A DNA stretch of 63,516 nt, filler included. It is 7 parts of 7 records of this genome, joined end to end, with 100 filler letters (N's around TTAATTAATTAA, not from the genome) between each part and the next. Parts side by side here need not be neighbours in the genome. Positions count along the whole stretch, not along the records: positions 27,514 to 34,998 come from DRR723986_9470; 6 more parts are not named here. One strand, written 5' to 3'. This document shows, piece by piece, positions 8,364 to 52,895 of the stretch; position 1 is the stretch's first letter, and each line of letters starts with the position of its first letter. The translations under genes were made by a program, and so were the position numbers. The notes under the pieces were generated by a model. It ran no database searches and was not told the DNA's origin. It saw only the letters and a list, made by a program, of their open reading frames with translations.

Positions 8364-8392
8364 CCGCCACTTTCTATATTAGAAAGTGGCGG
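8364..8392. repeat. 13-bp perfect inverted repeat overlapping the tRNA CCA end
   Basis: CCGCCACTTTCTA-TAT-TAGAAAGTGGCGG. Confidence 0.8.
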
Positions 8393-9215: not shown

Positions 9216-9418
9216 CGCTGTCTGGAGTATGGCCGGTCCAAGGGGTTGGGGACCGTGGCATATTCTCGTCCGTAGCATATGTTCAATCGAAATTTGTTCT
9301 GATCAGAAATTTTTTCAAACTGTTTGCGCTATCGGTCCGGTCATGGACTCGGTAACTTGTGATTGAACCGATCGTCCCGAACTGGCGTTGACGCGTCGCC
9401 TTTGCTATCCCTTCGACA

Positions 9419-10627: not shown

Positions 10628-10753
10628 CCGGTGTTCACAGCTCTCCAAATGGTGAGCACCTTGTGTCTTTGGTCAAAGCAGGGAAGCGGCTAATAAGGTC
10701 GCTCCGAGCCTCGCCGGATTGCCGGTGGGCTGCCTGAACAACCGGAATGTCGA

Positions 10754-11494: not shown

Positions 11495-11564
11495 ACGCAG
11501 CGCCAAGGTTCTTCGCCTTGGCGCATTGCATCAACCGACTGAAATCTAACGAGATTAGGTTGCC

Positions 11565-12830: not shown

Positions 12831-13012
12831 AAGTCCTGCTTTCCGAGCCTGAAACCGAATCTCAAAGAAGATACCTCATCAGGTGTGCATTATGGTTAAT
12901 GAAAAGCAAACCGAAGCACTCAGGAAGTCAGATCTTTCAATGTTCTGTGGATCGGGGCATATAGAGGCCGACTTGTGTGGGTGATGCCCGAAAAATTGAC
13001 AGTGGACCTTTG

Positions 13013-14368
13013 ATGACTTCCCGTTCTTGCCTTTCGATTGTTCTGGCCGCCGGACTTGGCACCCGGATGAAATCCAACCTGCCAAAGGTGATGCATGAGA
13101 TCGGCGGACTGCCGTTGGTCGGGCATGTGGTAAAGGCCCTGAAACAGGCTGGCTCTGAGCGAATTTCCGTCGTAACCGGCCCAGATATGCCCGAGCTTGA
13201 AAAGCTGGTTCAAAACCTTGCGCCGGAAGCGCATTGTCATGTCCAGCACGAGAGGCTGGGTACGGCTCACGCGGCGCTTGCCGCCCGTTCTGCGCTGGCC
13301 TCGCCTTCGGACGATGTCCTGATCCTATTCGGCGACACTCCACTGGTGACGGCAGACACGATCGGCAAAGTTCGACGGGCCTTGTCGGATGGCGCAGACC
13401 TGGCCGTGCTTGGGTTCGAAACCCAACAACCATTCGGCTATGGCCGTTTGCTGACCGATAACGGGCAACTTGTTGCCATTCGGGAAGAAAAGGACGCCTC
13501 GGACGAAGAACGGAGGATCACGTTCTGCAACTCCGGCATCATGGGTTTCTCGGGGCAGCATGCGCTTTCTTTGTTGGATGCGATTGGCAATGCCAATGCC
13601 AAGAGCGAATTTTACCTGACGGACGCGGTTGAAATCGCCAACAGCAGGGGCTTGAAGGTTGTTGCGGTTTCCGGCTCGGAAGTCGAAACGCAAGGCATCA
13701 ATACACGTGCTCAGCTGGCTGCCTGTGAAGAGGATTTCCAGGTTCGTATGCGTAATTTTGCTTTGGAAAACGGCTGCACATTGCTTGCGCCCCAAACGGT
13801 TTATTTCTCGCATGATACCATTCTGGAATCTGATGTGGTCGTAGAGCAGAATGTCGTCTTCGCCCCGGGGGTAAGGGTCGCAAGCGGAGCAAGGATCCGC
13901 GCCTTCAGTCACCTTGAGGGGGCGTCCGTTGGCAGGAACAGCGCTGTTGGTCCCTATGCCCGTCTGCGGCCCGGCGCGGTTCTGGGGGCCGGCACCCGTG
14001 TCGGCAACTTTGTCGAAGTCAAAAACACGACCTTCGAAGACGGTGCCAAAGCCAATCATCTAAGCTACATCGGCGACGCCAGTGTCGGTTCGAAATCGAA
14101 CATTGGTGCTGGCACCATTACCTGCAATTACGACGGCTACCTGAAACACCGGACAGAGATTGGAGCGGGCAGTTTTGTCGGTTCCAATTCCACGCTGGTG
14201 GCACCGGTCAGCCTTGGCAGTGGGTCTTTTGTCGCTGCCGGAAGCGTGATCACCGATGATGTGGACCAGGATTCCATGGCATTTGGCCGTGCTCGGCAGA
14301 TCGTCAAGGAAGGCAAGGCAAAACAGCTGCGGGACCGGCTGAAGGCTGCCAAGGAAAGCAAATCCTGA
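13013..14368 (+). CDS. glmU: Bifunctional UDP-GlcNAc pyrophosphorylase / glucosamine-1-phosphate acetyltransferase
   Basis: LAAGLGTRMKSNLPKVMH, GPYARLRPG, GNFVEVK, NIGAGTITCNYDG. Confidence 0.97.
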   Translation: MTSRSCLSIVLAAGLGTRMKSNLPKVMHEIGGLPLVGHVVKALKQAGSERISVVTGPDMPELEKLVQNLAPEAHCHVQHERLGTAHAALAARSALASPSDDVLILFGDTPLVTADTIGKVRRALSDGADLAVLGFETQQPFGYGRLLTDNGQLVAIREEKDASDEERRITFCNSGIMGFSGQHALSLLDAIGNANAKSEFYLTDAVEIANSRGLKVVAVSGSEVETQGINTRAQLAACEEDFQVRMRNFALENGCTLLAPQTVYFSHDTILESDVVVEQNVVFAPGVRVASGARIRAFSHLEGASVGRNSAVGPYARLRPGAVLGAGTRVGNFVEVKNTTFEDGAKANHLSYIGDASVGSKSNIGAGTITCNYDGYLKHRTEIGAGSFVGSNSTLVAPVSLGSGSFVAAGSVITDDVDQDSMAFGRARQIVKEGKAKQLRDRLKAAKESKS

Positions 14369-14485
14369 CTTTCATACAATTCTCGACCCTTGTCATTTAA
14401 TGAAACAGGGATTGATTTCTGGTTGGCAGGCGCTGTCGTCTAAAGCAGTGCGGTCCATTGGATCCATTTTTAAAGGGCTTTTTGC

Positions 14486-16312
14486 ATGTGTGGCATTGTT
14501 GGCGTGTTGGGAACGGTTGATGCGGCGCCGCGGATCGTGGATTCGCTGAAGCGGCTGGAATACCGGGGCTATGATTCTGCTGGCGTTGCCACATTGGTGG
14601 ATGGTGCCATCGTGCGCCGCAGGGCGGAAGGCAAGCTGCGCAATCTTGAAGCTGTTCTCGAAAAGTCACCCCTGACAGGCATCTCCGGGATCGGTCACAC
14701 ACGGTGGGCAACACACGGTGCACCAACTGTTGCCAATGCCCACCCGCACCAGGCCGGCTCGGTTGCCGTCGTTCATAATGGTATCATCGAAAACTATCTG
14801 GAACTGCGAGAGGAAATCGTCGCTGCCGGCGCCGTGCTGGATACCGAAACCGACACAGAAGTCGTGGCCCATCTGGTCAATCTGGCGATGGGGAAGGGAC
14901 TTTCTCCTCGAGATGCTGTTGCACAGGTTCTGCCGCGCCTGAAGGGTGCTTTTGCATTGGCGATGCTGTTTTCCGGTGAGGAAGATCTTCTTATCGGTGC
15001 CCGCAAAGGATCGCCGCTTGCTGTCGGGCATGGAGACGGGGAAATGTTCTTCGGGTCCGATGCCATCGCCCTGTCGCCGTTTACCGACCGGATTACCTAT
15101 CTTGATGAGGGCGATTGGGCCGTCATCACAAGGGCAGGTGTTGAGATCTTCGATCATGCGAACCAGCCTGTCACGCGCCCGGAAGCAAGGTCGTCTGTCA
15201 CCTCCAGTCTTATGGACAAGGGCAACTACAAGCACTTCATGGCCAAGGAAATCCACGAGCAGCCGGAAGTGCTGGGCCATACGCTGTCACGCTATTTCGA
15301 TTACACGACCAAGCGAGCCCGTGTGGAAGGGGCTGACCAACTCAAGTTCAAGGACCTGTCGCGCCTGATCATCACGGCCTGTGGAACGGCGTATCTTGCC
15401 GGTCTGGTGTCCAAATACTGGTTCGAGAAATACGCCCGCCTTCCAGTAGAGATCGATATCGCCAGCGAGTTCCGCTATCGCGAAACACCGGTGAGCGACA
15501 AGGACACAGCGCTGGTGATTTCCCAGTCTGGTGAAACTGCAGACACGCTCGCCTCACTGCGCTACTGCAAGACGAATGGTGCCACGATCGGTGCGATCGT
15601 CAATGTGCCGGAAAGCACGATAGCCCGGGAAGCCGACAGGGTTTTCCAGACCATTGCCGGACCTGAAATCGGCGTTGCCTCGACAAAGGCCTTCACGTGT
15701 CAGCTTGCGGTGCTCGCCGGTCTTGCCCTGCAGGCCGGACGGGAGCGCGGCGTGCTGACGCCGGAGCGGGAGCAGGAGCTTGTCGCGGAATTGATCGAAG
15801 TGCCGAGCCTCGCTCTCAAGGCCCTGGCCCGTGAAAGCGATATCGAGAAACTGGCGCATCCGCTCTCCAAGGCAAGCAATGCACTTTACCTCGGCCGGGC
15901 AACCAATTTCCCGCTTGCTCTGGAAGGCGCGCTGAAGCTCAAGGAGCTCTCCTACATCCACGCAGAAGGCTACGCTGCCGGGGAACTCAAGCACGGTCCT
16001 ATAGCCCTCATCGATGAAAACATGCCGGTTTTCGTGATCGCGCCCTTTGACGCGATTTACGAGAAAACCGTTTCCAACATGCAGGAAGTGGCCGCGCGCG
16101 GCGGACGGATCGTGCTCATCACAGACGAGCGCGGTGCGTCGGAGTGTGGCAATGCGGCCGAAAATACCGTCATTCTTCCCGACATGTCGGATATAGTTGC
16201 GCCGATCATCTACGCGTTGCCTGTTCAACTCATCGCTTACCACACGGCTGTCTTCATGGGCACCGATGTCGATCAGCCGAGGAACCTGGCCAAATCCGTG
16301 ACGGTTGAATAG
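14486..16312 (+). CDS. glmS: Glutamine--fructose-6-phosphate aminotransferase
   Basis: MCGIVG start, LEYRGYDSAG, GHTRWATHG, SQSGETADT, C-terminal PRNLAKSVTVE. Confidence 0.98.
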   Translation: MCGIVGVLGTVDAAPRIVDSLKRLEYRGYDSAGVATLVDGAIVRRRAEGKLRNLEAVLEKSPLTGISGIGHTRWATHGAPTVANAHPHQAGSVAVVHNGIIENYLELREEIVAAGAVLDTETDTEVVAHLVNLAMGKGLSPRDAVAQVLPRLKGAFALAMLFSGEEDLLIGARKGSPLAVGHGDGEMFFGSDAIALSPFTDRITYLDEGDWAVITRAGVEIFDHANQPVTRPEARSSVTSSLMDKGNYKHFMAKEIHEQPEVLGHTLSRYFDYTTKRARVEGADQLKFKDLSRLIITACGTAYLAGLVSKYWFEKYARLPVEIDIASEFRYRETPVSDKDTALVISQSGETADTLASLRYCKTNGATIGAIVNVPESTIAREADRVFQTIAGPEIGVASTKAFTCQLAVLAGLALQAGRERGVLTPEREQELVAELIEVPSLALKALARESDIEKLAHPLSKASNALYLGRATNFPLALEGALKLKELSYIHAEGYAAGELKHGPIALIDENMPVFVIAPFDAIYEKTVSNMQEVAARGGRIVLITDERGASECGNAAENTVILPDMSDIVAPIIYALPVQLIAYHTAVFMGTDVDQPRNLAKSVTVE

Positions 16313-16315
16313 TCC

Positions 16316-16756
16316 ATGGACAGCAAAAGCACGCAAGATCGGGTTTTGTCCTTCGAGGAGCGGTACAGGGCTGACGTCATTGCGCTCTGGGAGAAATGTG
16401 GCCTGATGCGCCCGTGGAATGATCCGGACAAGGACATCGACCGCAAGCAGACCGACGAAAACGGAGCCTTCTTCGTGCTTCTGCGCGGGGACAGGCTTAT
16501 CGGGTCCGTCATGGCCGGGTATGACGGCCACCGCGGCTCGATCAACTATCTTTCAGTCGATCCCGAATGCCAGACGGTGGGCCTTGGGAAAATGCTGATG
16601 AGCCGCTGCGAGGCATTCCTGGTTGCGAAGGGCTGTCCGAAGATCAACCTTATGGTACGTCAGGACAATGACAAGGTTCTGCGTTTTTACGAACAACTCG
16701 GATATGCGGAGGAAAGCGCTGTTTCCCTTGGGAAGCGGCTTATTCCAGACATTTAG
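16316..16756 (+). CDS. GNAT acetyltransferase (YpeA-like)
   Basis: RPWNDP, MAGYDGHRG, GCPKINLMVR, FYEQLGY. Confidence 0.88.
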   Translation: MDSKSTQDRVLSFEERYRADVIALWEKCGLMRPWNDPDKDIDRKQTDENGAFFVLLRGDRLIGSVMAGYDGHRGSINYLSVDPECQTVGLGKMLMSRCEAFLVAKGCPKINLMVRQDNDKVLRFYEQLGYAEESAVSLGKRLIPDI

Positions 16757-27413: not shown

Positions 27414-27513
27414 NNNNNNNNNNNNNNNNNNNNNNNNNNNNNNNNNNNNNNNNNNNNTTAATTAATTAANNNNNNNNNNNNNNNNNNNNNNNNNNNNNNN
27501 NNNNNNNNNNNNN
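27414..27513. other. Artificial contig spacer
   Basis: N-run with TTAATTAATTAA. Confidence 0.98.
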
Positions 27514-30500
27514 CCCGCCGCAACGCTGGCGGGCCCGACCCGCAGCACCGCATTGGAGGCGGGGGCGAGTGTGAGCGTGCTGAACTCTCTCTCGCGCAAG
27601 GCACCGGATTTCGAGACGATGGCGCAGTCGGCAGCGGCGCTGTTCGTGCAAGGCATCGACCTCGATTGGCCTGCGATCACCGGACAGCCAACTTGTCATG
27701 TGGAGCTTCCTGCCAATGCCTGGCAGTCAGAACCGTTCTGGCAAGGGTCGGAGGAAAGCGATGCGGTGCTGTTCAAGCCGGTCAAGCATCCGTTCCTGGG
27801 CCAGCGTGCGCGGGGCAACAGCACAAGCTGGATGTCCGAGCTGAATCTGCGCGCCTATGCCTATCTCAAGGATCATCGGTTGCAGTCCGACGTGATCTTC
27901 CCGGCGGCGGGCTATATCGACACGATTATTGCAATGTGCCGCGAACAATTCGGGGCTGACAAGACAATCGAGATTGAAGACGCGGTCATTCATGAAGCGC
28001 TGTTCATCGACCCGGAAGAAGAAATCCTTTTCAGTTCTATCTTCGATCCCGACAGGGGCAGGGTGAAGATGTATTCCAGGGTCCGTGACGCCAACGACGA
28101 CTGGGTGCTGCGCAGCGAGGCCCGCGCGCGGGTCACCGACGTAAAGGCTCCGCCCGCCCGCCCGTTCGACCCGGACCGCAAGGGCATGACGGAAATCGAC
28201 ACGGCCTATGCGTATAGTGTCGACGAGACGAACAGCTTTATCAACTATGGCGATGCATTCCAGACGATCGACCAGCTCTGGATGACCTCCTCCAAAACCT
28301 TTGCCCGCGTGGTTCTGAAAGACGGGGGCAAATCCACCAGAAGCCGCCACCACATTCATCCCACCATGCTGGACGGGTGTTTGCAGATTCTGGAACCACG
28401 CATGACGCTGAAGAAGATGCGCCGGGGCCGTCAGCCCGGTGATCCTGTTTGCCTGCCAATCGGCGTCGGGCGTATTCGGGTCTTTGGCGACTTCCCCGAT
28501 GAAATTTTCGTCGAAGCTGATCAGATCAAGCAGATCAATGACTTGGAGCCGACCGCCGGCTTTACCGTGCGCGATTGTGACGGGCGTGTTCTGATGTCTG
28601 TCGAGCGGCTCAAGGTCAGCCTTCTGCCCAACAACAAGGCGGAATCCGCGGGTGACGAGGTGCCTGCCCATTTCGTGCGACAGGATCTTGTAACCCTGCG
28701 CGAGGAAGAGGCCGGTGCCGACCCCGTCACCGGGCGTTGGCTGCTGCTGGAAGGTGGCTCCCAGTCCGATGCGGACCTCGCCGGGGCGCTATCGGCCTCG
28801 GGCGCCGAGGTCAGCCGTGTGACGCGGTCGGACTTGGGAGAGGACATTCGCGGCGGGCTGATCGACCTGGCCGCAGATGCGATCGAAACCGGTGATCTGG
28901 CAGGCATTGCAGTCGCCTGGCCGCTGGCGCTTGCAGATGTGTCGGAGGACAGTTCGACCGACGATCTGTTTGGCGCGATTGACAGATGTACCAAAGACCT
29001 TATTGCGCTTGGCGACTTGCTGGATTTTGCCCGCAGCGGCGAAAACGGGCTGCCGGAAATCGTGGTCCTGACGTCGGGGGCGTATCCCGCATCCGGCAGC
29101 GACGGCCAAGATGGCCGGATCCTGACGCAGATGCCGGTTGTGGCTGTGGCCCGCGGATTGGCGACCGAAACGCCGGAATACCGAATTCGTCTGCTGGATG
29201 CGGATGCACCGGCTCTCTCTGATCCGTCTGCGCTGGCCGCGCGTATCCTGCGCCCCGGCCCGGAAACCGAGGTGATCCTGCGCGACGGCGCGTGCCTTGT
29301 TCCGCGCCTGCGCCATGCGGAGTCCGATGATTTCGACTGGAAACTGTTGTCTGTCCCGAAAACCGACAAACTCACCAATTTCCATGCCACGATGAAATCC
29401 CCCGGTGTGATCGACCATGTCGGGCTGACCGAGATCCCGCTGCAACCGATGGGACCGGACGAGGTTCGGGTCAGGATTTCGGCGGTTGGCCTGAATTTCC
29501 GGGATATCATGGCCGTGACCGGCCTGCTGCCGACCGAGGCAGAACCCAAACCGGCTTGGGAAAACCTTGGCCTGGAATATGGCGGCGTCGTTGAGGCCAT
29601 TGGTGAAAACGTGGCCGGTTTCAAACCGGGCGACCGGGTGATGGGGCTTGGAAAACGCTGTCTGCAACGGTTCATGACTGTGAACCCAAACGTTCTGACG
29701 CTGTTGCCGGATCATATTTCGCTGGCACAGGCGGCCACCATTCCCAGTGCCTTCGCCACGGCCCATTACGCACTGAACCATGTCGGACGGATGCGGGCCG
29801 GTGAAAAGGTCTTCATCCACGTGGCCACGGGCGGCGTTGGAACGGCCGCCGTGCAACTGGCCCAGGCAGCAGGTGCCGAGATCTTCGCAACTGCGGGCAA
29901 CCCCGAGAAACGACGCCTTCTGAAAGACCTTGGCGTGCCGCATGTGATGGATTCCCGGTCGCTCAAGTTCGCCGATGACGTGATGAGGATCACCAAGGGA
30001 ACCGGCGTCGATATTCTGCTGAACTCTCTGCCCGGCGCCTATATCGCCAAGGGGCTGGACATCATGGCCCCCTATGGCCGCTACCTGGAGATCGGAAAAC
30101 GCGACGTCTATGAGGATGCGGCAATCGGCATGAAAGCGCTGCGCCGCAACGTGTCGCTTTCGGTTCTCGATCTCGCCGCCATGGGAGAAGAGCGGCCAGA
30201 GCTTCTGGCGGAGATGTTCCAGGAACTGATCGGGATGCTGGACAGCCAGGCCCTTTCGCCGCTGCCCTATACCGAGTTTCCGATAAGCCAGATCGGCGAC
30301 GCCATCCGTTACATGAGCCAGGCAAAGCATGTCGGCAAGGTCGTCGTGACGTTGGAAGAAGATGCGTTCCACGTGCGCCGTGACATGAACCGGCCCGTAA
30401 GCCTGTCTGAAAACGGCAGCTACCTGATCACCGGCGGAACGGCGGGTTTCAGCCTCAAGATCGCGGATTGGCTGTCGAAAGCCGGGGCAGGGCGGATTGT

Positions 30501-32709
30501 GCTGGCCTCCCGGTCTGGCAAGACGGACGCGGCGGGCGAACGCTTTATCGCGACGTTGCGTGCGCGGGGTACGCAGGTGGACGTTGCCGCACTGGACATT
30601 ACCGACACGTCGGCGGTTTCCGATTTCGTTCGGTCTAGTCTGAACAGCGATACACCGCTGAAAGGCGTTGTCCACGGGGCGGCGGTTATCAAGGACGGGT
30701 TTGCCAACCAGTTGACGGATGACATGATCACCGAGGTTCTGGCCCCCAAGGTCCGGGGCGGCTGGAATCTGCATCGGGCCTTTGCCGAGGCCGGGGTCGA
30801 GCCGGAATTCCTGATCGGCTTTTCGTCGATTTCCCAGGTCATCGGCTCTGCCGGGCAGTGCAACTACGTGGCGGCCAATGCCTTCCTCGATGCATTGGCC
30901 CACTACAGGACAGCGCTTGGTCGGCCCGGAACCGCCATTGACTGGGGGGCGATTGCGGATGCCGGTTTCGTGGCAAGAAACGCGGCCCTTGCATCCTATC
31001 TTGAAACCCTGGGCCTGCATGGCCTGAAGGCCAAGGATTTCCCCGCCGCCATGGACCTCAGCGTCACGAGGGAAGCCCCGTCCTTCGTCTATTCCCGCGC
31101 CGATTGGGCCCAGATCATGCGGGCCAATCCGGCACTTGGGTCCAGTCCCCGCATGGCAAGTGCGCTGCTGTCGGAGGGCGGTGCCGCGCAGGAAGTTCGG
31201 ACAACCCTGATGCAGCTGGACGGCGAGGCTCTGGTTGCTGCCGCCCGCGACTACATCATGGACGAGATTTCCAGCGTACTGAAAATCGACAAATCGACGA
31301 TCCAGTCCGATCGCCCGATGAGCGAGCTTGGACTGGACAGCCTGTCGTCCTTCGAGTTGAAAATCCGTATCGAGACGGCACTGGACTTTTCGCTGCCGGT
31401 CTCGAAGTTTCTGCAAGCTCCCTCGGTCGACGAATTGTCGAAGATGCTGGGAGGTGAGATCGAGGCCATCAAGCGCAGCGAAGCGGCAGCACGCGATGCG
31501 GATGAAACCGCGGACGAACAGGGGGCTGTCAAGACAGCGAACACCGGGGCTCTGGCCAGCAACGGACAGCTTGGCCTTCTGCAACTGGCGCGCGCCCCGA
31601 TGACCTCTGACGCCGCGCGCCGTGCCATGGAACACGTGGTCGAAGCCCCGCTGGCGGATGAGTGCTCGATCAAGGATCTGGAAAAGGCGCTTCGGAAACT
31701 CGAACGGCGTCATCCCTTGTTGCGCATTCGGTTCGACACCGATGGCCAGCTGCATCTCGATGGTCAGGCGACACGGATCGTGGAAACCCGCGATGACAGC
31801 CTGCTGGATGTGGCGTCGGGGGAGTTTCTGCGCCTTGCGGTGGCCGATCAACGGCTGCGTGTAAGGATGCACGCGGTTATGGGCGACGAGACATCCGGCG
31901 AGCTTATCCTGACCGAGTTGCTTGGATTGCTGAGCGGTAAGAAACTCGTCCGGGCCATGCCCAAGAAGGCCGTTCTGGCTGCGCTTTCCGCCTGCCGATA
32001 TGATGCGGAACGGGCGGATGCGCAGACGGATCGGGCGTTCTGGTGGTACAGCCTGTCTGCCGGGGCCTCGGTGTTGCCGTTCCCGCGGCGCAGTCGTGCG
32101 CTGCTTCCTGTAGGGGCCGGATCGAACCACGGGCCCGCATCCCACGTCAGCGGCCGGATCGAGGGTCAACATGGAGAGGCCGCGCTGCTGCTTGCCTTCG
32201 CCACGGCCCTGCGGAAGGTGACGCAAAGCAGTGGACCGGTGCTGATCGACCGCAGGCAATCCCTGCGCGGGGGTTTGCCGGATCATGCAGCGGTTGGCCC
32301 GTTCGAAATCGACCAGCCCGTTCGCGTGCCCGCAGACAGCAGCGATCGGATCGGGCGGGCAGGGTTGAACCGGACGCTGCGCCTGGCCCACAGACATAGG
32401 GCCTTCGAGAGCCACGCCGCCGCCGCAGAGTTTGCCCCGATCTACGCAGAGTGGGGACTGGCCCCGTTCCAGGCATTGTTTGAACTGTCGGGCTCCTGGT
32501 CCACCGTTCCCCCCGCATGTCTTCTGCACGATGTTTGGTTGCAGGTGGAACAGGACGGCAGCACGCCCCGGATCCGCCTGAACTTCGATCAGGACGTCAT
32601 GGACAAGCATTTCGCCCTGGATATCCTGAATGCTGTCGAGGCTGAATTGGCAAAGGACCGCGCCGCCACTTCGGACGCGGTCAAAGCACCGTTGCCAGAG
32701 GCGAACTGA
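27514..32709 (+). CDS. Type I highly reducing PKS, 5'-truncated: (end of AT)-DH-ER-KR-ACP-degenerate condensation-like domain
   Basis: DH: HPFLG, LKDHRLQSDVIFPAAGY, HPTMLDGCLQ. ER: GLNFRD, IHVATGGVG. KR: YLITGGTAGFS, HGAAVIKD, GSAGQCNYVAAN. ACP: LGLDSL. C-like tail: RRHPLLRIRF, HAVMGDE, VGPFEIDQPVRV. Confidence 0.92.
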   Translation, partial: PAATLAGPTRSTALEAGASVSVLNSLSRKAPDFETMAQSAAALFVQGIDLDWPAITGQPTCHVELPANAWQSEPFWQGSEESDAVLFKPVKHPFLGQRARGNSTSWMSELNLRAYAYLKDHRLQSDVIFPAAGYIDTIIAMCREQFGADKTIEIEDAVIHEALFIDPEEEILFSSIFDPDRGRVKMYSRVRDANDDWVLRSEARARVTDVKAPPARPFDPDRKGMTEIDTAYAYSVDETNSFINYGDAFQTIDQLWMTSSKTFARVVLKDGGKSTRSRHHIHPTMLDGCLQILEPRMTLKKMRRGRQPGDPVCLPIGVGRIRVFGDFPDEIFVEADQIKQINDLEPTAGFTVRDCDGRVLMSVERLKVSLLPNNKAESAGDEVPAHFVRQDLVTLREEEAGADPVTGRWLLLEGGSQSDADLAGALSASGAEVSRVTRSDLGEDIRGGLIDLAADAIETGDLAGIAVAWPLALADVSEDSSTDDLFGAIDRCTKDLIALGDLLDFARSGENGLPEIVVLTSGAYPASGSDGQDGRILTQMPVVAVARGLATETPEYRIRLLDADAPALSDPSALAARILRPGPETEVILRDGACLVPRLRHAESDDFDWKLLSVPKTDKLTNFHATMKSPGVIDHVGLTEIPLQPMGPDEVRVRISAVGLNFRDIMAVTGLLPTEAEPKPAWENLGLEYGGVVEAIGENVAGFKPGDRVMGLGKRCLQRFMTVNPNVLTLLPDHISLAQAATIPSAFATAHYALNHVGRMRAGEKVFIHVATGGVGTAAVQLAQAAGAEIFATAGNPEKRRLLKDLGVPHVMDSRSLKFADDVMRITKGTGVDILLNSLPGAYIAKGLDIMAPYGRYLEIGKRDVYEDAAIGMKALRRNVSLSVLDLAAMGEERPELLAEMFQELIGMLDSQALSPLPYTEFPISQIGDAIRYMSQAKHVGKVVVTLEEDAFHVRRDMNRPVSLSENGSYLITGGTAGFSLKIADWLSKAGAGRIVLASRSGKTDAAGERFIATLRARGTQVDVAALDITDTSAVSDFVRSSLNSDTPLKGVVHGAAVIKDGFANQLTDDMITEVLAPKVRGGWNLHRAFAEAGVEPEFLIGFSSISQVIGSAGQCNYVAANAFLDALAHYRTALGRPGTAIDWGAIADAGFVARNAALASYLETLGLHGLKAKDFPAAMDLSVTREAPSFVYSRADWAQIMRANPALGSSPRMASALLSEGGAAQEVRTTLMQLDGEALVAAARDYIMDEISSVLKIDKSTIQSDRPMSELGLDSLSSFELKIRIETALDFSLPVSKFLQAPSVDELSKMLGGEIEAIKRSEAAARDADETADEQGAVKTANTGALASNGQLGLLQLARAPMTSDAARRAMEHVVEAPLADECSIKDLEKALRKLERRHPLLRIRFDTDGQLHLDGQATRIVETRDDSLLDVASGEFLRLAVADQRLRVRMHAVMGDETSGELILTELLGLLSGKKLVRAMPKKAVLAALSACRYDAERADAQTDRAFWWYSLSAGASVLPFPRRSRALLPVGAGSNHGPASHVSGRIEGQHGEAALLLAFATALRKVTQSSGPVLIDRRQSLRGGLPDHAAVGPFEIDQPVRVPADSSDRIGRAGLNRTLRLAHRHRAFESHAAAAEFAPIYAEWGLAPFQALFELSGSWSTVPPACLLHDVWLQVEQDGSTPRIRLNFDQDVMDKHFALDILNAVEAELAKDRAATSDAVKAPLPEAN

Positions 32710-32712
32710 CCT

Positions 32713-34074
32713 ATGTCGGCTGGTTCGCAACAGCTACAGATCCACCGGGCAGATTTGCGGCAGGTCTTTCTGCTGGAGCAGTATCTGGATCCGGACTGTC
32801 TTCATGACCTGAGGCAGTTCTGGATCGTGAACAGTGCGACGCTGGTTCGCCCCAGGGTGGATCTGCGCCGCCTGAAACGGGCGATGGACAAGCTGTGTGT
32901 GCGGCATGACTGCCTTCGGTTGCGGCTGCAAAAGATCCGCGGCAACTGGATGGCGGTCACTGATCCGAACGCGCGCATCGAGATCCAGCAGGTGGATCTG
33001 GGCGATCTGGACGATGAAAGCTTTCAGACCCGGATCAAGGAGATCGCCAATGCGCCGATGCCTTTGGTGGACTCTCCTCTGGCCGAGATGATCGTGGTGC
33101 ATTGCGGTGAACGGGGCGATGTCATCGTGACCCGCGTTCACCACGCAATCACAGACGGCTATGGTATGGTGGTCCTGACCGAGGATCTGCTGAAATACCT
33201 GATCGGTCTGCCGATCCTGTCACGCGCCGTCAGCCATGCGGAATTCGTTCAGAAGTATGAAAACCCACCCCCGTCCCGCGCCAAGGAGATCGAGGCTTTC
33301 TGGGAAGACATGCTGCGCCGTTTTCCGAAAGCTCCGAACATCGGGCGAAGGGCGAAAGGGATGGAACCTCTCTGGCGCTCTATCGGAAAGGTCGAAGCCG
33401 CCAGGCTGATCGTCAAGACCACACCCCAAAGCGCCGAGCGGCCGGTTGCCCGGGCCGAGAAGATGAATATCGGGGCGGCAACCTTGTTCTTCGCCGCCTA
33501 TATGGAGGCGCTGTGTCAGTGCTATGATCAGGACCGGCTGATTTTCGTCACCCCGATTACGCGCACCAACCCGGCTTTGGCCACCTACATGGGCGATTGC
33601 ACCCTGGATGCAATCTTTCCCTATCAGGCAGCGGGGACGGGCGGCTTGGACGCTGCCGCTCTTGAACTGCACAAGACAATGATGGAGGGCATTGATCATC
33701 TACCCTCCGATTCAGCCCGAAGGGGAACGGCCTGGGAAAACAAGCTGCTCGCGGCAGGGTGTTACCCCCGCCAGTTCTGCGCCTATCAGCCCCGTGCGAT
33801 GGCCCGCCAGAACCAATCCATGTTCAGCGAGGGCTTCAATCGAGAGGTCGGCGTCGAGGAGCGGGTCGGCCCCTACTGGATCTCGACTCTTGATGTGTCG
33901 GTCCACCACCGCACACTGTCAGAGCTTCAGTTCAACCTCGGCCCTGACAACGGCAGAAACGGGTTTGCACTAAGCTACGACGGCATTGCCTATACCCAAC
34001 AGGAGATCTCTCAGTTGGCGGAAAAGATCTGTGCATTGCTCGATCTCGAAATGACCGGGGCGCACATGCCATGA
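32713..34074 (+). CDS. Stand-alone condensation-domain protein (C-domain / Pap-type acyltransferase)
   Basis: RHDCLRLRL and intact HHAITDG active site; FWEDML; 3 nt after the PKS stop; no A or PCP domain. Confidence 0.88.
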   Translation: MSAGSQQLQIHRADLRQVFLLEQYLDPDCLHDLRQFWIVNSATLVRPRVDLRRLKRAMDKLCVRHDCLRLRLQKIRGNWMAVTDPNARIEIQQVDLGDLDDESFQTRIKEIANAPMPLVDSPLAEMIVVHCGERGDVIVTRVHHAITDGYGMVVLTEDLLKYLIGLPILSRAVSHAEFVQKYENPPPSRAKEIEAFWEDMLRRFPKAPNIGRRAKGMEPLWRSIGKVEAARLIVKTTPQSAERPVARAEKMNIGAATLFFAAYMEALCQCYDQDRLIFVTPITRTNPALATYMGDCTLDAIFPYQAAGTGGLDAAALELHKTMMEGIDHLPSDSARRGTAWENKLLAAGCYPRQFCAYQPRAMARQNQSMFSEGFNREVGVEERVGPYWISTLDVSVHHRTLSELQFNLGPDNGRNGFALSYDGIAYTQQEISQLAEKICALLDLEMTGAHMP

Positions 34075-34998
34075 CAGAGTCAGAAAACGCCACCCGACAT
34101 GTCGGACCCCGCGATGTGGGCATCAGCCCATTTGCATTCCGGTTGTGGAACGGAATGGCGCTGGACGCATTTCTGCGACTGATGAAGGGCAACTGGTCGC
34201 GCGTGTCGCCCGGCCGTTACCCCGCCGTTGCGTCTATCCTTGTGACGGCGTCCTTCAACCAATTGCGCAAGTGGATCGGACTTGTGGTGTTCGAACCGAA
34301 GATCCGCCGGATACAGATCGAACCGGACCCGATTTTCGTGATCGGGCACTGGCGCAGTGGCACCACATGGCTGCACCAGACCATGTTGGCCGACCCCGGA
34401 TTTGCCGCGCCGACCATGCAGAGCTGTTTTACCCCGGAATCCTTCCTTGTGGGGCGCAGAGTGCTGGAACCGCTGTTGAGGCTGATCTTCCCGACCAGTC
34501 GGCCTATGGACAATGTCGGCGTCGGGCTGGAAGCACCCGAGGAGGATGAGCACGCCCTTCTTCTGGCCGGTGCCTTCACACCCTACCGCGAGCTTCTGCT
34601 GCCCTGCGACACGGTCGCCGGTTCCATCATCAAGACCGAGGACATGCCACATGAAGAGGCCGAGAACTGGCGGCGAGTCTGGCTAGGATTTCTGCGCCGG
34701 GTGCAGTTTGTGAACCCGGGCAAGTGGCTTGTCCTGAAATCACCGGCCCACACATTGCGAACTGCGGAAATCCTGCGACTGTTTCCAAACGCACGGTTCA
34801 TCCATATCGTCCGCGATCCTTACCGCGTGTTCTCCTCCTCGCGAAAATCCGGCGTTGCGATGCGGGCGTCACAGGCGCTGCAAACCCGGATTCCCGGCCA
34901 GGCGGAACTCGATGCCAAGCTGCTTGAGGGCTTCGAACAGTTCCATGCCACGTATCATGCCGATATGGCGGGAATTCCCGACTCGCAGCTTGTGACCC
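34071..34998 (+). CDS. PAPS-dependent sulfotransferase (partial; resembles mycobacterial Stf3-type)
   Basis: PIFVIGHWRSGTTWLH (5'-PSB), RPMDN, PEEDE, LVLKSPAH, FIHIVRDPY (3'-PB); ATGA overlap with the upstream gene. Confidence 0.9.
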
Positions 34999-35098
34999 NN
35001 NNNNNNNNNNNNNNNNNNNNNNNNNNNNNNNNNNNNNNNNNNTTAATTAATTAANNNNNNNNNNNNNNNNNNNNNNNNNNNNNNNNNNNNNNNNNNNN
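34999..35098. other. Artificial contig spacer
   Basis: N-run with TTAATTAATTAA. Confidence 0.98.
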
Positions 35099-45708: not shown

Positions 45709-45808
45709 NNNNNNNNNNNNNNNNNNNNNNNNNNNNNNNNNNNNNNNNNNNNTTAATTAATTAANNNNNNNNNNNNNNNNNNNNNNNNNNNNNNNNNNNN
45801 NNNNNNNN
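45709..45808. other. Artificial contig spacer
   Basis: N-run with TTAATTAATTAA. Confidence 0.98.
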
Positions 45809-46738
45809 AACCACCAAAGATGAACCCGAAAGTGAAAAAAGTTTGTTTTCCGAGCCAATAAAAATGCGCACGCCTTCGCCCTGTTCTGTCAGCTCAAGGA
45901 ATTGGGCGATATCGCGCTTGCGTTCGAGATCGTCAAACAACGATCTGATCAAATCTAGCTCGGCCTCGTCGCCCTGATCGGCCAGCAGGTTTGACCGGCC
46001 GCGCACAATCAGCCTTTCGCCATGCTCGCCCTGGGCATCCCACACAGCCAGGCCGCTTTCGACCAAATCATGCGCCAGGGTGTTTATCTCTTGGCGACGG
46101 CTGGCAATTTCCTCGCGGATCACTGTTTTCAGCTCGGTCAGCGTGCGCCCCTCGGCGAGGGCGTTTAGAAAATTGGCCGCCTCGCGCATTGACGAGGGGG
46201 TTTGCCCCATGGGCGGGGTAAACAGGCGGTTTTCAACATGACCATCGGCAAAAACCAGCACCACCAAGGCACGATCTTGGGACAAAGACACAAATTCCAC
46301 GTGGCGAATGGCTGCCTCGTGTTTGGGGGCCAGCACCAGCGACGCGCCGCGCGTTACACCCGATAGCGCCGTGCTGATACGGTCTAGCACATCGCCCACA
46401 TCCAGCGAATTGCTGGTTACTGTATCGTCTATTTTTCTGCGGTCGTTATCGTCTAGATCGCCCACCTCGAGCAGGCCATCAACAAACAGCCGCAGCCCCA
46501 TCTGCGTGGGCACGCGGCCAGCGCTTACATGGGGGCTGCCCAACAAGCCCAGATATTCCAGGTCTTGCATCACGTTGCGAATGGTGGCGGCGCTGACCTT
46601 TTCATTCATTGTGCGGGTCAGGGTGCGGCTGCCCACCGGATCGCCGCTTTGCAAATAGCCCTCGACCACGCGGCGAAACACCTCGCGCGAGCGTTCGTTC
46701 AACTCGTCAATAATCTTGGCGCCGTTTTGCTTCATCAC
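45809..46738 (-). CDS. hrcA: Heat-inducible transcription repressor HrcA (3' truncated)
   Basis: PVGSRTL, SAATIRNVMQDLE, HVSAGRVPT, VRIFIGSENKLF. Confidence 0.95.
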
Positions 46739-46844
46739 GTCCTATCCAGAACGGCATTAAAGACCGTAGGGCTGAAAGGTCAATCGGGGTTGCGCATCAC
46801 ATCTTCTCGCCTGTATCCCGAGGGAAATGGATAAGGAACACATC

Positions 46845-47558
46845 ATGCGCCCCTCTGGTAGAAATTTAGACGAAATGCGCCCAGTTTCAATCGAGACTGG
46901 CATCACAAAACACGCAGAAGGCGCGTGCATGATCCGTATGGGCGATACGCATGTGCTGTGCACCGCCACCATCGAAGACCGCGTGCCGCCCTTTATCAAG
47001 GGCTCGGGCCTGGGTTGGGTAACGGCCGAATATGGCATGTTGCCCCGCTCAACCAGCAGCCGCATGCGCCGCGAGGCCGCCGCCGGCAAGCAAGGCGGGC
47101 GCACAGTGGAAATTCAGCGCCTGATCGGCCGCGCCCTGCGCGCCGGTGTTGATCGCGTGGCCCTGGGCGAGCGGCAGATCACCATCGATTGCGATGTTAT
47201 TCAGGCCGATGGCGGCACGCGCTGCGCATCGATCACCGGGGGTTGGGTGGCGCTGCGCCTGGCGGTGAACAAACTGCTAAAGGCCGGCGATATCGTGACC
47301 GACCCGCTGATTTCGCCCGTTGCAGCCGTGTCTTGCGGCATTTACGCAGGCCAGCCCGTTCTTGACCTGGATTACCCAGAAGACAGCGAAGCCGGCGTTG
47401 ATGGCAATTTCATCATGCTGGGCAATGGCCAGCTGGTCGAGGTGCAGATGAGCGCCGAGGGCGCCACATTTAGCCGCGATCAAATGACAAAGCTGATGGA
47501 TCTGGCCGACAAGGGCGTAGCCGAATTGGTGGCCGCACAAATGGCAGCGGCACAATGA
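46845..47558 (+). CDS. rph: Ribonuclease PH
   Basis: [52 protein letters not shown]. Confidence 0.97.
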
Positions 47559-48166
47559 CACGGCGGTTTCAGGGGGATCGGCTGCTGGTGGCCACGCATA
47601 ACGCAGGCAAGCTGGAAGAGATTGCAGCCCTGCTGCAGCCCTTTGGCGTGGCGGTTGTGGGCGCGGCTGAAATGAACCTGCCCGAACCCGCTGAAACCGG
47701 CACGACTTTTGTGGAAAATGCCCGCATAAAGGCCCATGCCGCGGCACAGGCCACAGGCCTGCCCGCGCTGTCAGACGATAGCGGTATAGAAATCGATGCT
47801 TTGGGTGGTGCGCCTGGCGTTTATACCGCCGATTGGGCCGAAACCCCCAATGGCCGCGATTTCGTGATGGCCATGACGAACACAGTGCAAAAGTTAAACG
47901 AAACCGGCCTGCCCCAGCCCTGGACGGCACGGTTTTGCTGCACATTGGTCTTGGCCTGGCCCGATGGCCACGACGAGGTGTTTCCAGGCACGATCGAGGG
48001 CGAAATCACCTGGCCCATGCGCGGCAACCAGGGCCATGGCTATGACCCGATATTCCAGCCCATCGGCCAGTCCATCAGCTTTGGCGAAATGGACCGCTGG
48101 GAAAAGAACCGAATCAGCCACCGCGCCGATGCGTTCAATAAATTTGTAGCGGGCTGTTTTGGCTGA
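47555..48166 (+). CDS. rdgB: dITP/XTP pyrophosphatase (RdgB/HAM1)
   Basis: ATHNAGK, ENARIKA, DDSG, GYDPIF, KNRISHR. Confidence 0.95.
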
Positions 48167-49316
48167 CGATTGGGAAAATGGCGGCTTTGGCCTGTATCTG
48201 CATTGGCCCTTTTGCCAGGCCAAATGCCCCTATTGCGATTTCAACAGCCATGTCGCACGCAGCATCGATCAAAACGCCTGGCTGCAGGCCTATCTTGCCC
48301 AGCTACAGGCCTATGCAGCACTAACACCGGGGCGTGTGTTGCATTCGGTGTTTTTTGGCGGCGGCACGCCCAGCCTGATGAACCCCGATATCGTGCATGC
48401 GATTATCGCCGAAATTCGCCGCCTTTGGCCGGTTGCCAATGATCTGGAAATCACGCTCGAGGCCAACCCAAGCTCGGTCGAGGCGGGGCGCTTTGCCGGC
48501 TATGCCGATGCCGGGGTGAATAGAATTTCTATGGGAATTCAGGCACTTAACGATGCGGATCTGCACCGTTTGGGCCGCATACACACCGTGGCAGAGGCGA
48601 TGCAAGCCTTTGATATTGCAAGAAACCAATTTTCCCGCGTCAGTTTCGACCTGATTTATGCCCGCCAAAACCAAAGCTTGGCAGATTGGCAGGCGGAATT
48701 GGCCAAGGCACTGGATCTGGCCGTTGATCACCTGTCGCTTTACCAGCTGACCATCGAAGATGGCACCGCCTTTGGCGACCGCTACGCGCGCGGCAAGCTG
48801 CACGGCCTGCCCCCCGATGACCTGGCCGCCGATATGTATCAAGCCACCCAAGACCTGTGCGGCGCTGCCGGCCTATTGGGATACGAGGTATCAAACCACG
48901 CGCGCCCTGGCGCAGAATCGCGCCATAACCGCGTGTATTGGCGCTATGGCGATTATATCGGCATTGGCCCAGGCGCCCACGGGCGGCTTACATTGGGCGG
49001 GCAGCGATATGCCACTGTGCATTGGTCTGCGCCCGGCAAATGGCTAAACGCGGCGCAAACCAACGCAACAGAGCAACACCGCGATGCAATTTCGCGCGCC
49101 GATCAGGCCGATGAGTTTCTGATGATGGGCCTGCGCCTGGCCGAAGGAATAAACCCCGCCCGCTATGCCCAGTTGGCCGGGCACCCCTTGCCAGATAAAA
49201 ACTTGCGCTATCTATCCGATATAGGAATGGTTGAAACATCGCATGATAATATCCGCGTCACCGATGCCGGGCGGATTGTTTTAAACGGTGTTTTGAAAGA
49301 GCTTATCACAGGGTAA
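48159..49316 (+). CDS. hemW: Radical SAM heme chaperone HemW
   Basis: YLHWPFCQAKCPYCDFNS, FFGGGTPS, YEVSNH, HNRVYW. Confidence 0.93.
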   Translation: MADDWENGGFGLYLHWPFCQAKCPYCDFNSHVARSIDQNAWLQAYLAQLQAYAALTPGRVLHSVFFGGGTPSLMNPDIVHAIIAEIRRLWPVANDLEITLEANPSSVEAGRFAGYADAGVNRISMGIQALNDADLHRLGRIHTVAEAMQAFDIARNQFSRVSFDLIYARQNQSLADWQAELAKALDLAVDHLSLYQLTIEDGTAFGDRYARGKLHGLPPDDLAADMYQATQDLCGAAGLLGYEVSNHARPGAESRHNRVYWRYGDYIGIGPGAHGRLTLGGQRYATVHWSAPGKWLNAAQTNATEQHRDAISRADQADEFLMMGLRLAEGINPARYAQLAGHPLPDKNLRYLSDIGMVETSHDNIRVTDAGRIVLNGVLKELITG

Positions 49317-49319
49317 ATC

Positions 49320-49673
49320 ATGCGGGTAATCTGGGCCGCTTTGGGTATGCTATGCGTGGGCATAGGGCTGTTGGGCGTGGTTTTGCCGCTGTTACCCACT
49401 GTGCCCTTTATGTTGCTGGCCGCATTTTGTTTTGCCCGTTCTTCCGAACGGCTGCACCTGTGGCTGATCACCCACCCCACCTTTGGCGGGCCCATTCAAG
49501 ACTGGCAGGAAAACGGCGCAATCAACCCACGGGCCAAAAAGCTGGCAACCCTGTCTATCGGCGCTGTGTTCCTGCTGTCTGTTGCCCTATCGCTGCCCAT
49601 TCACGTATTGGCGATACAAGCGGCTGTTTTATCTTGCGTTTTGCTGTTTATCTGGACGCGCCCTAGCGGTTAG
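49320..49673 (+). CDS. YbaN/DUF454 family membrane protein
   Basis: LPLLPTVPFMLLAAFCFARSS, HPTFG, WQENGAI. Confidence 0.85.
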   Translation: MRVIWAALGMLCVGIGLLGVVLPLLPTVPFMLLAAFCFARSSERLHLWLITHPTFGGPIQDWQENGAINPRAKKLATLSIGAVFLLSVALSLPIHVLAIQAAVLSCVLLFIWTRPSG

Positions 49674-50574
49674 CTGTTAGGCGCATACACAGCTCGTCCA
49701 GCTGCTCTAGGTCGGTATAGCTAATGGTGATACTGCCAGCCTCGGCGCCCGGGCTGTGGTTAATTTCCACTTTCATGCCCAGATTTGCCGATAAATCCCC
49801 CTCTAACGCGCGGGTATCGGCATCTTTTTCAACAGCTTTGCGCGCACGGCTTTGCCCACCGCCGGTTTTCTGGCTGGGTTTGGGCTGTTTTGCCAAACGT
49901 TCGGTTTCGCGCACAGAAAGGCCCTGCTGAATAACGCGGCGGGCCAAGGCGCCGGGATCTTCGCTGGTAATCAAGGCGCGTGCATGCCCAGCCGATAGTT
50001 TGCCCTCGCGCAGGTAGGTTTGCACCTCGTCTGGCAGTTGCAGCAAACGCACAAGGTTGGCGATGTAGCTGCGGCTTTTTCCCAAGGCCTCGGATAGCTT
50101 ATCTTGTGTGTGGCCAAAGCGCTCCATCAAGGCTTTGTATCCAGCCGCCTCTTCCATGGGGTTCAAATCGGCGCGCTGGATATTTTCGATAATGGCAATT
50201 TCCAGCACTTCGACATCGTCGAATTCACGCACAACCACCGGCACATGGTGCAGCTGTGCCATTTGCGCCGCACGCCAGCGGCGCTCGCCCGCGACAATCT
50301 CGAATTGTTGGGGGTGGCCCGGGCGGGCGCGCACGATGAGCGGCTGAATAATGCCCTTTTCCTTTACCGAGGCGGCCAGCTCGTCTAGCTGTTCAGGCGT
50401 AAAGCTGCGTCGCGGCTGGTTTGGGTTTGGGTATACGCTTTCGACCGGCACGTTCATATCTGCACGGCGCTGTGTGCCATCATCGGTTTTTTGGGCCTCA
50501 GGCGCCGTAACATCGGCCATCAGCGCCGATAAGCCACGCCCCAAACCGCCAGCTTTACGCTTTTTTTCCATCAC
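49663..50574 (-). CDS. parB: Chromosome partitioning protein ParB
   Basis: GLGRGLSAL, NPNQPRR, AGERRWRAAQ, ENIQRADL. Confidence 0.96.
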   Translation of the reverse strand: MMEKKRKAGGLGRGLSALMADVTAPEAQKTDDGTQRRADMNVPVESVYPNPNQPRRSFTPEQLDELAASVKEKGIIQPLIVRARPGHPQQFEIVAGERRWRAAQMAQLHHVPVVVREFDDVEVLEIAIIENIQRADLNPMEEAAGYKALMERFGHTQDKLSEALGKSRSYIANLVRLLQLPDEVQTYLREGKLSAGHARALITSEDPGALARRVIQQGLSVRETERLAKQPKPSQKTGGGQSRARKAVEKDADTRALEGDLSANLGMKVEINHSPGAEAGSITISYTDLEQLDELCMRLTANR

Positions 50575-50582
50575 CGCCCCCT

Positions 50583-52758: not shown

Positions 52759-52858
52759 NNNNNNNNNNNNNNNNNNNNNNNNNNNNNNNNNNNNNNNNNN
52801 NNTTAATTAATTAANNNNNNNNNNNNNNNNNNNNNNNNNNNNNNNNNNNNNNNNNNNN
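52759..52858. other. Artificial contig spacer
   Basis: N-run with TTAATTAATTAA. Confidence 0.98.
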
Positions 52859-52895
52859 GGGGGGTGTACGCCCGGTGTACCGGGGGTGACAGGCC

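Follow-up and report, generated by a model that had tools for sequence, protein, structure and literature searches.

A conserved Rhodobacterales operon of a highly reducing polyketide synthase, a free-standing condensation enzyme and a sulfotransferase: a candidate sulfated-lipid pathway

Three coupled genes on one contig

We analysed a window of 63,516 nucleotides, which consists of seven draft contigs joined by six N44-TTAATTAATTAA-N44 joiners (8414-8513, 27414-27513, 34999-35098, 45709-45808, 52759-52858 and 58357-58456). The span under study, 27514-34998, is exactly one 7,485-bp contig with a joiner on either side. It carries three genes: a type I polyketide synthase (PKS) gene cut at its 5' end, a gene for a 453-residue stand-alone condensation-family enzyme (free C), and a gene for a PF13469 sulfotransferase cut at its 3' end. 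All features of the contig described below lie on the plus strand. As judged from its genes and their relatives, the contig covers the central part of a well-supported biosynthetic operon of six genes, which is conserved and as yet uncharacterised. The PKS and free C genes are separated by a 3-nt gap (TGA-CCT-ATG), and the free C and sulfotransferase genes overlap in ATGA; the tight coupling of three genes described in the first-pass annotation is thus seen in the sequence. The identities given there, namely a PKS with dehydratase (DH), enoyl reductase (ER), ketoreductase (KR) and acyl carrier protein (ACP) domains, a free C protein with HHAITDG, and a sulfotransferase, were borne out by Pfam and translation. 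The unstranded joiners at 27414..27513 and 34999..35098 have a different contig to the left and to the right, respectively. Because such joiners separate the contigs, window genes flanking the span are not its genomic neighbours, and they were ruled out as genomic context for the PKS contig. The truncation of the PKS and the sulfotransferase comes from the assembly, not from biology.

Relatives were collected by a profile scan of the free C family with one genome per species. It gave at least 37 loci, six of them near full-length (L001-L006); the other 31 were partial matches to other C-domain genes. Counts out of six given below cover L001-L006 only, among the matches listed, and the free C identity of these relatives is 41-79%. 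Chance occurrence is not at issue, as each of the three genes has orthologues, some nearly identical and others diverged.

The PKS gene (27514..32709) encodes a type I highly reducing enzyme truncated at its 5' end by the contig end; its frame is open from the first contig base and closes with a TGA at 32707-32709. The contig holds 1,731 of about 2,554 residues, comprising a linker that follows the acyltransferase (AT) domain, DH, ER, KR, ACP and a condensation-type tail that we call C*. The DH domain (27787..28638) was matched by Pfam PKS_DH_N (8.7e-14) and PS-DH (1.2e-15) and has its His in HRLQSDVIFP. The ER domain (29452..30348) was matched by ADH_N, ADH_zinc_N and ADH_zinc_N_2 and has the nucleotide-binding site GGVGTAA. 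KR (30415..30957; Pfam KR, 4.9e-58; GGTAGFS) and ACP (31249..31449; PP-binding, 2.5e-12; phosphopantetheine site LGLDSL) follow. The catalytic motifs of all four domains are intact in the contig copy.

The ketosynthase (KS) and AT domains had been placed off the fragment, and full-length copies agree with this. All 1,731 residues are 98% identical to residues 824 onward of the 2,554-residue protein P0161, which begins with KS-AT, as do the PKSs of L002-L004 and L006, giving the full order KS-AT-DH-ER-KR-ACP; the first 75 residues of the fragment match the end of the AT-region open reading frame (ORF) in L001. The KS motifs DTACSS, EAHGTG and NxGH and the AT motif GHSIG were seen in relatives only, and NxGH was not found in L006. 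The AT active site GHSIG goes with DTAWHS at the downstream specificity position in five of five relatives (L001-L004 and L006; about residue 645-760). No thioesterase or reductase release domain was found in the PKS, and no loading domain was found with it. The best NCBIfam model was the Pks2 equivalog (NF041183), colinear over 2,080 positions, which scored 540.5 bits with the contig fragment and 1,190.2 bits with the full-length L003 orthologue, both far below its 2,400-bit cut-off. By its domain content, the PKS is an iterative highly reducing type I enzyme with a Mas/Pks2-like architecture, outside the Pks2 equivalog.

The sulfotransferase (34071..34998) is of the type that uses 3'-phosphoadenosine 5'-phosphosulfate (PAPS). 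It matched PF13469 at 2.6e-23 (83.9 bits, cut-off 27) and contains GHWRSGTTW and RDPxxxxxS. Truncated at its 3' end by the contig end, it retains 309 of 392 residues, and a 98%-identical full-length copy is P0195; an ORF stop at 35054 is an artefact that falls in the joiner. In an alignment of 13 family members, R95-S96-G97-T98-T99 and R248/P250/S256 do not vary, and all are kept in the contig copy, in which the invariant columns G..RSGTT, LKSP.HT.R and H-I-.-R-.-P…S are also intact. We take RSGTT and R..P…S to be the PAPS-binding motifs. Before the PAPS loop lies a hydrophobic N-terminal segment (residues ~50-75; window 34218-34295). Its Kyte-Doolittle mean is 1.17 in the contig-like copy and 2.15-2.23 in distant members, which suggests, from composition, that some members of the family, at least, associate with a membrane.

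The family is large (2,364 matches in a protein search), and many homologues with 35-54% identity carry the JGI automatic name for the Stf3 reaction. According to the available text of PMC7404182, Stf3, which belongs to the sulfomenaquinone pathway, sulfates hydroxylated menaquinone-9, and that of PMC7081687 describes a Stf3-clade enzyme, Nbc48 of notonesomycin, that sulfates a polyketide-backbone hydroxyl and whose knock-out abolishes the sulfated congener. The contig protein resembles these Stf-family enzymes in its PF13469 domain and in the Stf3 labels of its homologues. It differs from them in that no NCBIfam model matched it at E<=0.001, the similarity to solved structures is weak (best 2z6v, 5e-8, and 2zq5, 3.5e-6, both listed as 'uncharacterized'), and the Stf3 likeness comes from an automatic label. 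The two structures are presumably the mycobacterial Stf9 and Stf1.

A PKS together with a sulfotransferase is the hallmark of the CurM/olefin-synthase route, in which sulfate would be a leaving group on a beta-hydroxyacyl chain and a terminal alkene, not a sulfated lipid, would result. The olefin-synthase sulfotransferase 4gox is indeed in the PDB list, but at E 0.076, which is not significant. Moreover, the sulfotransferase here is a separate protein instead of a PKS domain, no thioesterase was found in the PKS or in the neighbours scanned in L001-L004, and a full DH-ER-KR set removes the beta-hydroxyl. The C enzyme and the lipid exporter of the relatives (see below) would have no role. We regard this route as very improbable.

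A fused and a free-standing condensation domain

The C* tail (31507..32709) is fused after the ACP and carries the motif M-H-A-V-M-G-D. Its profile was built from six PKS tails only, covering about 400 residues after the ACP. The tail of the contig PKS alone scored below threshold against Pfam Condensation (E 0.095), and a direct BLASTP of the contig C* against the contig free C gave nothing significant (E 0.054), so the homology between the two is visible by profiles only. By hhalign, the six-tail profile matched the free C family with 97.8% probability (E 9e-13, 362 columns). The C* region of L004 passes the Pfam Condensation cut-off by itself (32.1 vs 30.6 bits). Against the PDB, the C* profile gave six matches at E<=0.01, with C domains at 4e-6 to 1e-2; the fungal CON domains MokA (6ad3/7cpx set) and LovB were matched at 7.6e-5 and 2.2e-3. 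On this profile homology, the C* tail is a true homologue of C domains.

The composition of the profile matters for these values. A profile that included the 460-residue free C paralogue of L005 was inflated, giving 99.4% probability and 52 PDB matches (E<=1), compared with 97.8% and six matches (E<=0.01) for the six tails. That protein was excluded as a C* member, scoring 207 bits with the hidden Markov model of the free C family vs 10 bits. A likeness of C* to the glycopeptide X-domain (4tx2) was gone once the profile consisted of the six PKS tails only. An AlphaFold model of C*, made from the profile with the L005 protein, was not used, its confidence being low (pLDDT, the predicted local distance difference test, 56.4; pTM, the predicted template modelling score, 0.43).

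In a 16-sequence alignment the C* motif reads x-H-[A/R/G/K/S/N/H]-x-x-x-D, a register set by two members that read HHxxxD. In this register the contig C* has Ala where HHxxxDG has its second, catalytic His. The second His is missing in 14 of the 16 sequences, and the canonical HHxxxD is present in two. C* is therefore probably non-catalytic in the register of this alignment. The first-pass annotation had spoken of a pseudo-condensation domain, and that description fits the profile homology to C domains and the Ala in the contig copy, with the caveat on register weighed further below.

Directly after the PKS gene lies the gene for the stand-alone free C (32713..34074). It matched Pfam Condensation (PF00668) at 7.7e-25 (87.9 bits, threshold 30.6), its HHAITDG is intact, and no adenylation or peptidyl carrier protein (PCP) domain was found in its 453 residues by Pfam. 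H143, H144, D148 and G151 are invariant and G149 is nearly invariant in 21 free C sequences. Relatives of free C numbered 39 among the 8,000 best-scored candidates of a 5.8-billion-protein set, the closest named one among those scored being from Nioella aestuarii (79% identity). The catalytic His is kept in at least 71 of 73 stand-alone relatives, among the best 150 representatives.

An AlphaFold2 model of free C has a C-domain fold (pLDDT 90.7). With this model, Foldseek ranked SgcC5 (4znm, 3e-24) first, followed by CmnI and C domains of nonribosomal peptide synthetases (NRPSs), with 6cgo at rank 18 (1.3e-20); identities in these matches are only 17-20%. The free C profile placed 4znm at 9.5e-15, 6cgo at 3.6e-13 and 1l5a at 3.4e-4 in the PDB. 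SgcC5 is free-standing and ester-forming, and 6cgo is a chain-releasing C domain, that of the enacyloxin polyketide (background in the available text of PMC9113145). By contrast, PapA5 (1q9j, 8s6l) was absent from the 40 PDB matches (E<=0.01) of the free C profile and from the 50 Foldseek ranks shown. It was seen weakly (1e-3 and 0.037) only with a mixed profile of C* tails and the L005 free C paralogue. The PapA-type likeness suggested earlier for free C is therefore not supported: by profile and by Foldseek the enzyme groups with NRPS-type and free-standing C enzymes and is not specifically PapA-like.

Enacyloxin Bamb_5915 (6cgo), SgcC5 (4znm) and VibH (1l5a) are free-standing enzymes that transfer acyl groups from a carrier protein to free alcohols or amines. 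Free C shares with them a stand-alone C fold of about 450 residues and the catalytic His, and would, as they do, use a carrier thioester as donor and a soluble acceptor. Unlike these enzymes, to which its identity is 17-20%, it would take its chain from the PKS's own ACP, with C* standing between ACP and C. The enacyloxin chain is first passed to a separate PCP. From these comparisons, we propose free C as a candidate chain-release acyltransferase.

C* and free C form two separate families wherever they are present (tree split 100/100). They also occur in natural fusions: P0327 and P0329 (3,112 and 3,088 residues) have the order KS-AT-DH-ER-KR-ACP-C*-C, and P0301 (1,016 residues) consists of C*-C. 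Because such PKS-C*-C fusions exist, it can be argued that free C works on its PKS beside C*. A condensation-type domain directly after the ACP of a highly reducing PKS is also found in the fungal CON domains of LovB and MokA (7cpx, 6ad3). That match, however, is distant and confined to the N-terminal lobe (profile positions 42-183), and here the host is bacterial and C* is paired with an intact C.

Distant free C genes were seen on Sulfitobacter plasmids. On plasmid pDSM109990_a of Sulfitobacter dubius (L038, 141286-170527), two free C genes of 27% identity flank an IS256 transposase; a 3-kb Mur ligase family gene adjoins the C genes, and a distant type I PKS lies about 7 kb off. Similar 27% matches to free C were found on two further Sulfitobacter plasmids. 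These genes were rejected as members of the same cluster on the grounds of their 27% identity and different gene context, an arrangement that is likewise uncharacterised.

The operon in relatives and the proposed pathway

The contig is colinear with a locus of Nioella aestuarii, with 78.5% DNA identity over 7,483 bases, and Nioella is placed in the Rhodobacterales (taxonomy). By this DNA comparison, the host is a marine member of the Rhodobacterales close to Nioella. The first-pass annotation had left the host without a taxon, and the colinear identity now fills this in at the level of the order, near that genus.

In L001 (Nioella aestuarii), the operon runs PKS(KS-AT-DH-ER-KR-ACP-C*), C, sulfotransferase, a transporter of the MMPL family of RND pumps, a LolA_like gene and a gene for a protein of ~450 residues, with ORFs overlapping by 4 nt at the C/sulfotransferase, sulfotransferase/MMPL and MMPL/LolA-like junctions. 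L003 (Roseicyclus) and L004 (Rhodobacteraceae) have the same gene order. L002, a Rhodobacteraceae metagenome-assembled genome (MAG), has PKS-C-sulfotransferase followed by a flippase-like gene on the opposite strand, and L006 (a Sulfitobacter MAG) has PKS-C only. The PKS is directly upstream of C in five of the six loci, and PKS, C and sulfotransferase are adjacent in four (L001-L004). C adjoins the sulfotransferase in these four and, through a C paralogue, in L005. The MMPL-LolA_like-~450-residue export set lies downstream in four of six. The earlier annotation had listed a lack of conserved linkage among homologues as one of several findings that would refute it; linkage was found, with PKS-C-sulfotransferase adjacent in 4/6 and a C family gene beside the sulfotransferase in 5/6.

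The fifth of these, L005 (a Rhizobiaceae-group MAG, 1675-16430), carries two C paralogues, a sulfotransferase, the MMPL and LolA_like genes, a phosphopantetheinyl transferase (PPTase)-like gene and the ~450-residue protein. No PKS was found within 10 kb of this cluster. The motifs of its free C paralogues are HHAITDG and DHCNVDG, and its PPTase-like gene encodes 229 residues. Nearby are an FkbH-domain protein (2.7e-38), a TylF-like methyltransferase, a second sulfotransferase (Sulfotransfer_4) and a family 2 glycosyltransferase (GT2). These genes hint at a related pathway whose product would bear a glyceryl or sugar group.

Among the export genes of the relatives, the transporter matched the MMPL, HAE3 and HpnN models, each below its cut-off. 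The LolA_like protein matched PF17131 strongly (4.9e-54) and DUF1329 weakly (2.3e-6). The ~450-residue protein, conserved in four loci, has a signal-peptide-like N-terminus and no Pfam match even at E<=1; an Atlas result connects it to DUF1302, as a lead only. For DUF1302/DUF1329/RND gene sets, export of a cell-envelope component has been proposed from fitness data, as the available text of bioRxiv 10.1101/072470 describes. The present set resembles them in that an RND pump (MMPL/COG1033-type) is encoded together with a LolA/LolB-like protein and one more protein of the envelope. It differs in that PF17131 is strong and DUF1329 weak, the ~450-residue protein is without a Pfam match, no BNR protein is present, and the set is tied to a biosynthetic operon. 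The suggestion that the product is a surface lipid gains support from the position of this set directly downstream in 4/6 loci.

The same loci bear on a capsule or lipopolysaccharide lipid of the RkpA/WcbR type, which would anchor or decorate a surface polysaccharide, with a sulfotransferase that would act on the glycan. Polysacc_synt flippase-type genes adjoin the cluster in two of six loci (L002 and L004), and the L005 variant has a GT2 and a second sulfotransferase close by. However, the ORFs scanned in L001-L004 included no gene for capsule export, an aminotransferase-type enzyme or a glycosyltransferase, and the conserved linkage is to the MMPL/LolA-like exporter instead. We consider such a capsule- or lipopolysaccharide-associated lipid improbable, slightly more so than the silent cluster taken up next.

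The PKS of Nioella aestuarii JCM 30752 (L001, 2275-9996) occupies a single frame that is interrupted by three in-frame stops: a TAA after the KS, a TAG at a conserved Trp and a TAA at a conserved Ser in the KR. The NCBI annotation of this gene gives only a 458-residue KS fragment, and the gene looks, from its reading frame, like a pseudogene. The closest cultured orthologue thus raises the question of whether the cluster is decaying or silent and makes no product in the host. In the contig, by contrast, all 1,731 + 453 + 309 codons are open and the motifs intact, the 98%-identical PKS is full-length, and three other relatives have intact PKS genes of 2,541-2,554 residues. Decay or silence in the host of the contig is therefore improbable in our estimate. 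The protein clusters of the PKS, free C and the 392-residue sulfotransferase have members on contigs of 21,468, 66,332 and 9,517 bp. As the 98%-identical full-length PKS shares contig sizes with the C and sulfotransferase clusters, the missing KS-AT exists in near-identical genomes. Indirectly, from tables compared by eye, 11 of 39 C-homologue clusters agree with a sulfotransferase homologue in longest-contig size.

We propose the following scheme, to which we give about even odds (roughly 0.5): a saturated polyketide chain is released by free C onto an acceptor, and the resulting lipid is sulfated and exported to the outer membrane. The steps would be as follows: 1) the PKS, having a single module, would run repeated, fully reducing cycles until its ACP carries a long saturated acyl chain; 2) C*, with Ala at the catalytic His position, would serve as a scaffold or docking partner and not as a catalyst; 3) free C, with its HHAITDG, would take the chain off the ACP and join it to a putative small acceptor, through a hydroxyl or amine of this molecule, which is not made by the cluster; 4) the sulfotransferase would use PAPS on a free hydroxyl of the resulting lipid; and 5) transport of the anionic lipid, as far as the outer membrane or the surface of the cell, would fall to the MMPL pump, a LolA-like carrier and the DUF1302-like secreted protein. 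What we infer from the genes is the acceptor class (sugar, polyol or amine), where the sulfate is placed, and that a sulfated lipid is made at all.

The order of steps 3 and 4 could be reversed. As in sulfolipid-1, a polar metabolite (a sugar or polyol) may be sulfated first and then acylated by free C, with the same parts and the same export. In mycobacteria, according to the available text of PMC3318749, trehalose is sulfated by Stf0 before it is acylated by PapA2 and PapA1; the lack of a conserved acceptor-synthesis gene would suit a common metabolite. On the other hand, the homologues of our sulfotransferase are labelled as a lipid-hydroxyl enzyme, its hydrophobic N-terminal segment fits a lipid better than a soluble sugar (though the mean is 1.17 in the contig-like copy), and at E<=0.001 it is unmatched by any NCBIfam family, so that it is not recognised as any named sulfotransferase. 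We judge sulfation of the head group before acylation unlikely.

Sulfate might also be placed on the chain itself, at a polyketide hydroxyl left by incomplete reduction, with free C doing no more than forming an amide or ester at the carboxyl end. A hydroxy-fatty acyl conjugate that bears sulfate would result. In favour of such a product, reduction steps can be skipped by reducing PKSs that act iteratively, and Nbc48 acts on a polyketide-backbone hydroxyl (PMC7081687, available text). The DH, ER and KR of the contig all look intact, however, with no sequence sign of programmed skipping, and sulfation of the chain appears quite unlikely.

Several observations weigh against the proposed scheme, in which a saturated chain is released by free C, then sulfated and exported. 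The contig itself has only three genes, two of them cut, and the exporter genes are supplied by relatives. The relatives are not uniform: L002 has a MOP-type flippase-like gene in place of the MMPL, LolA-like and outer-membrane protein genes, and L006 has PKS-C only. The ORFs scanned in L001-L004 include no conserved gene of the cluster that would make the acceptor. The AT signature GHSIG…DTAWHS matches neither HAFH nor YASH, which we take to be the malonyl and methylmalonyl signatures, so that the extender unit is not readable from it. The Stf3 name of the sulfotransferase homologues is an automatic annotation only. The three in-frame stops in the Nioella aestuarii PKS imply that the pathway is dispensable, at least in that strain. 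With respect to step 2, two of 16 C* domains have the canonical HHxxxD, and the register differs between alignments: hhalign of the six-tail profile sets the conserved His on the catalytic position and a Gly at the Asp position, whereas MAFFT alignments and hhalign of the mixed profile put that His one residue before the position given by the six-tail hhalign.

Sulfolipids that are made by a PKS and exported by an MmpL protein of their own are best known from mycobacteria, as a speciality of theirs. Like the sulfolipid-1 system (Pks2, PapA1/PapA2, Stf0 and MmpL8; Mas/PapA5/MmpL7 for phthiocerol dimycocerosate), as set out in the available text of PMC3318749, the operon has a fully reducing PKS without a thioesterase, an adjoining stand-alone HHxxxDG acyltransferase, a PAPS sulfotransferase and an MMPL transporter. 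Unlike that system, the PKS scores 1,190 bits against the 2,400-bit Pks2 cut-off, free C does not rank with PapA enzymes in sequence or fold searches, and the ORFs scanned in the relatives included no gene for a fatty acyl-AMP ligase (FAAL, FadD23-type) or for a Chp1-like or Sap-like protein. The present operon also has an extra C* on the PKS, LolA-like and secreted ~450-residue proteins, a Gram-negative host and a different AT signature. By gene content, then, the cluster resembles the sulfolipid-1 parts list and is not a member of those families.

A broader interpretation, which we put forward as tentative and somewhat doubtful, is that roseobacters possess a Gram-negative counterpart of the mycobacterial sulfolipid line, in which a 'dead C/live C' pair, split or fused, would off-load the chain as a device not described before, and an MMPL pump, a LolA-like carrier and an outer-membrane barrel would form a dedicated route across three compartments that places the sulfated polyketide lipid in the outer membrane. 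There it could influence surface charge, vesicles or interactions with algae. In the literature searched, in which few subscription journals were covered, we found no account of the cluster or of a roseobacter PKS-derived sulfated lipid, which is not proof of absence. Many PKS clusters are uncharacterised and the chemistry here is putative, which makes the operon less surprising than in the first-pass annotation. Carriers with the same logic include Nioella, Roseicyclus, Sulfitobacter and further Rhodobacteraceae genomes, and cultured carriers exist; in Sulfitobacter mediterraneus isolates the PKS has the C* tail. If the scheme is true, it would add a new class of outer-membrane lipid to dominant ocean bacteria that live with algae. 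It would also provide a tractable, non-pathogenic system for the coupling of PKS lipid synthesis to envelope transport, a new mode of chain release, by a C*-C pair that follows the ACP, of use in PKS engineering, and an assigned cargo for the MMPL/LolA-like/DUF1302-like export set, modules whose substrates are largely unknown.

Other contigs of the window

No further pieces of the cluster were found elsewhere in the window by tblastn with eight queries from the Nioella locus: its KS, AT, sulfotransferase, MMPL, LolA-like and ~450-residue proteins and a pair of ORFs from upstream. Pfam recognised housekeeping genes only among 29 other ORFs of the window, with no PAPS, PPTase or FAAL genes. The contig to the left of the PKS contig carries pdhA and pdhB (26736 onward), the latter cut at 27413 by the joiner. 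The two short contigs at 45809-58356 carry hrcA, rph, a hemN-like gene, parB, parA, gidB, gidA (cut) and dnaA, ordinary genes of a replication-origin region. The contig at 35099-45708 encodes a single protein of 3,158 residues that is rich in FG-GAP, Big_9, cadherin-like and lactonase/beta-propeller repeats. Its GC content is 49.8%, vs 55-62% in the other six window contigs, and it may be an island or a contig of another organism in the bin.

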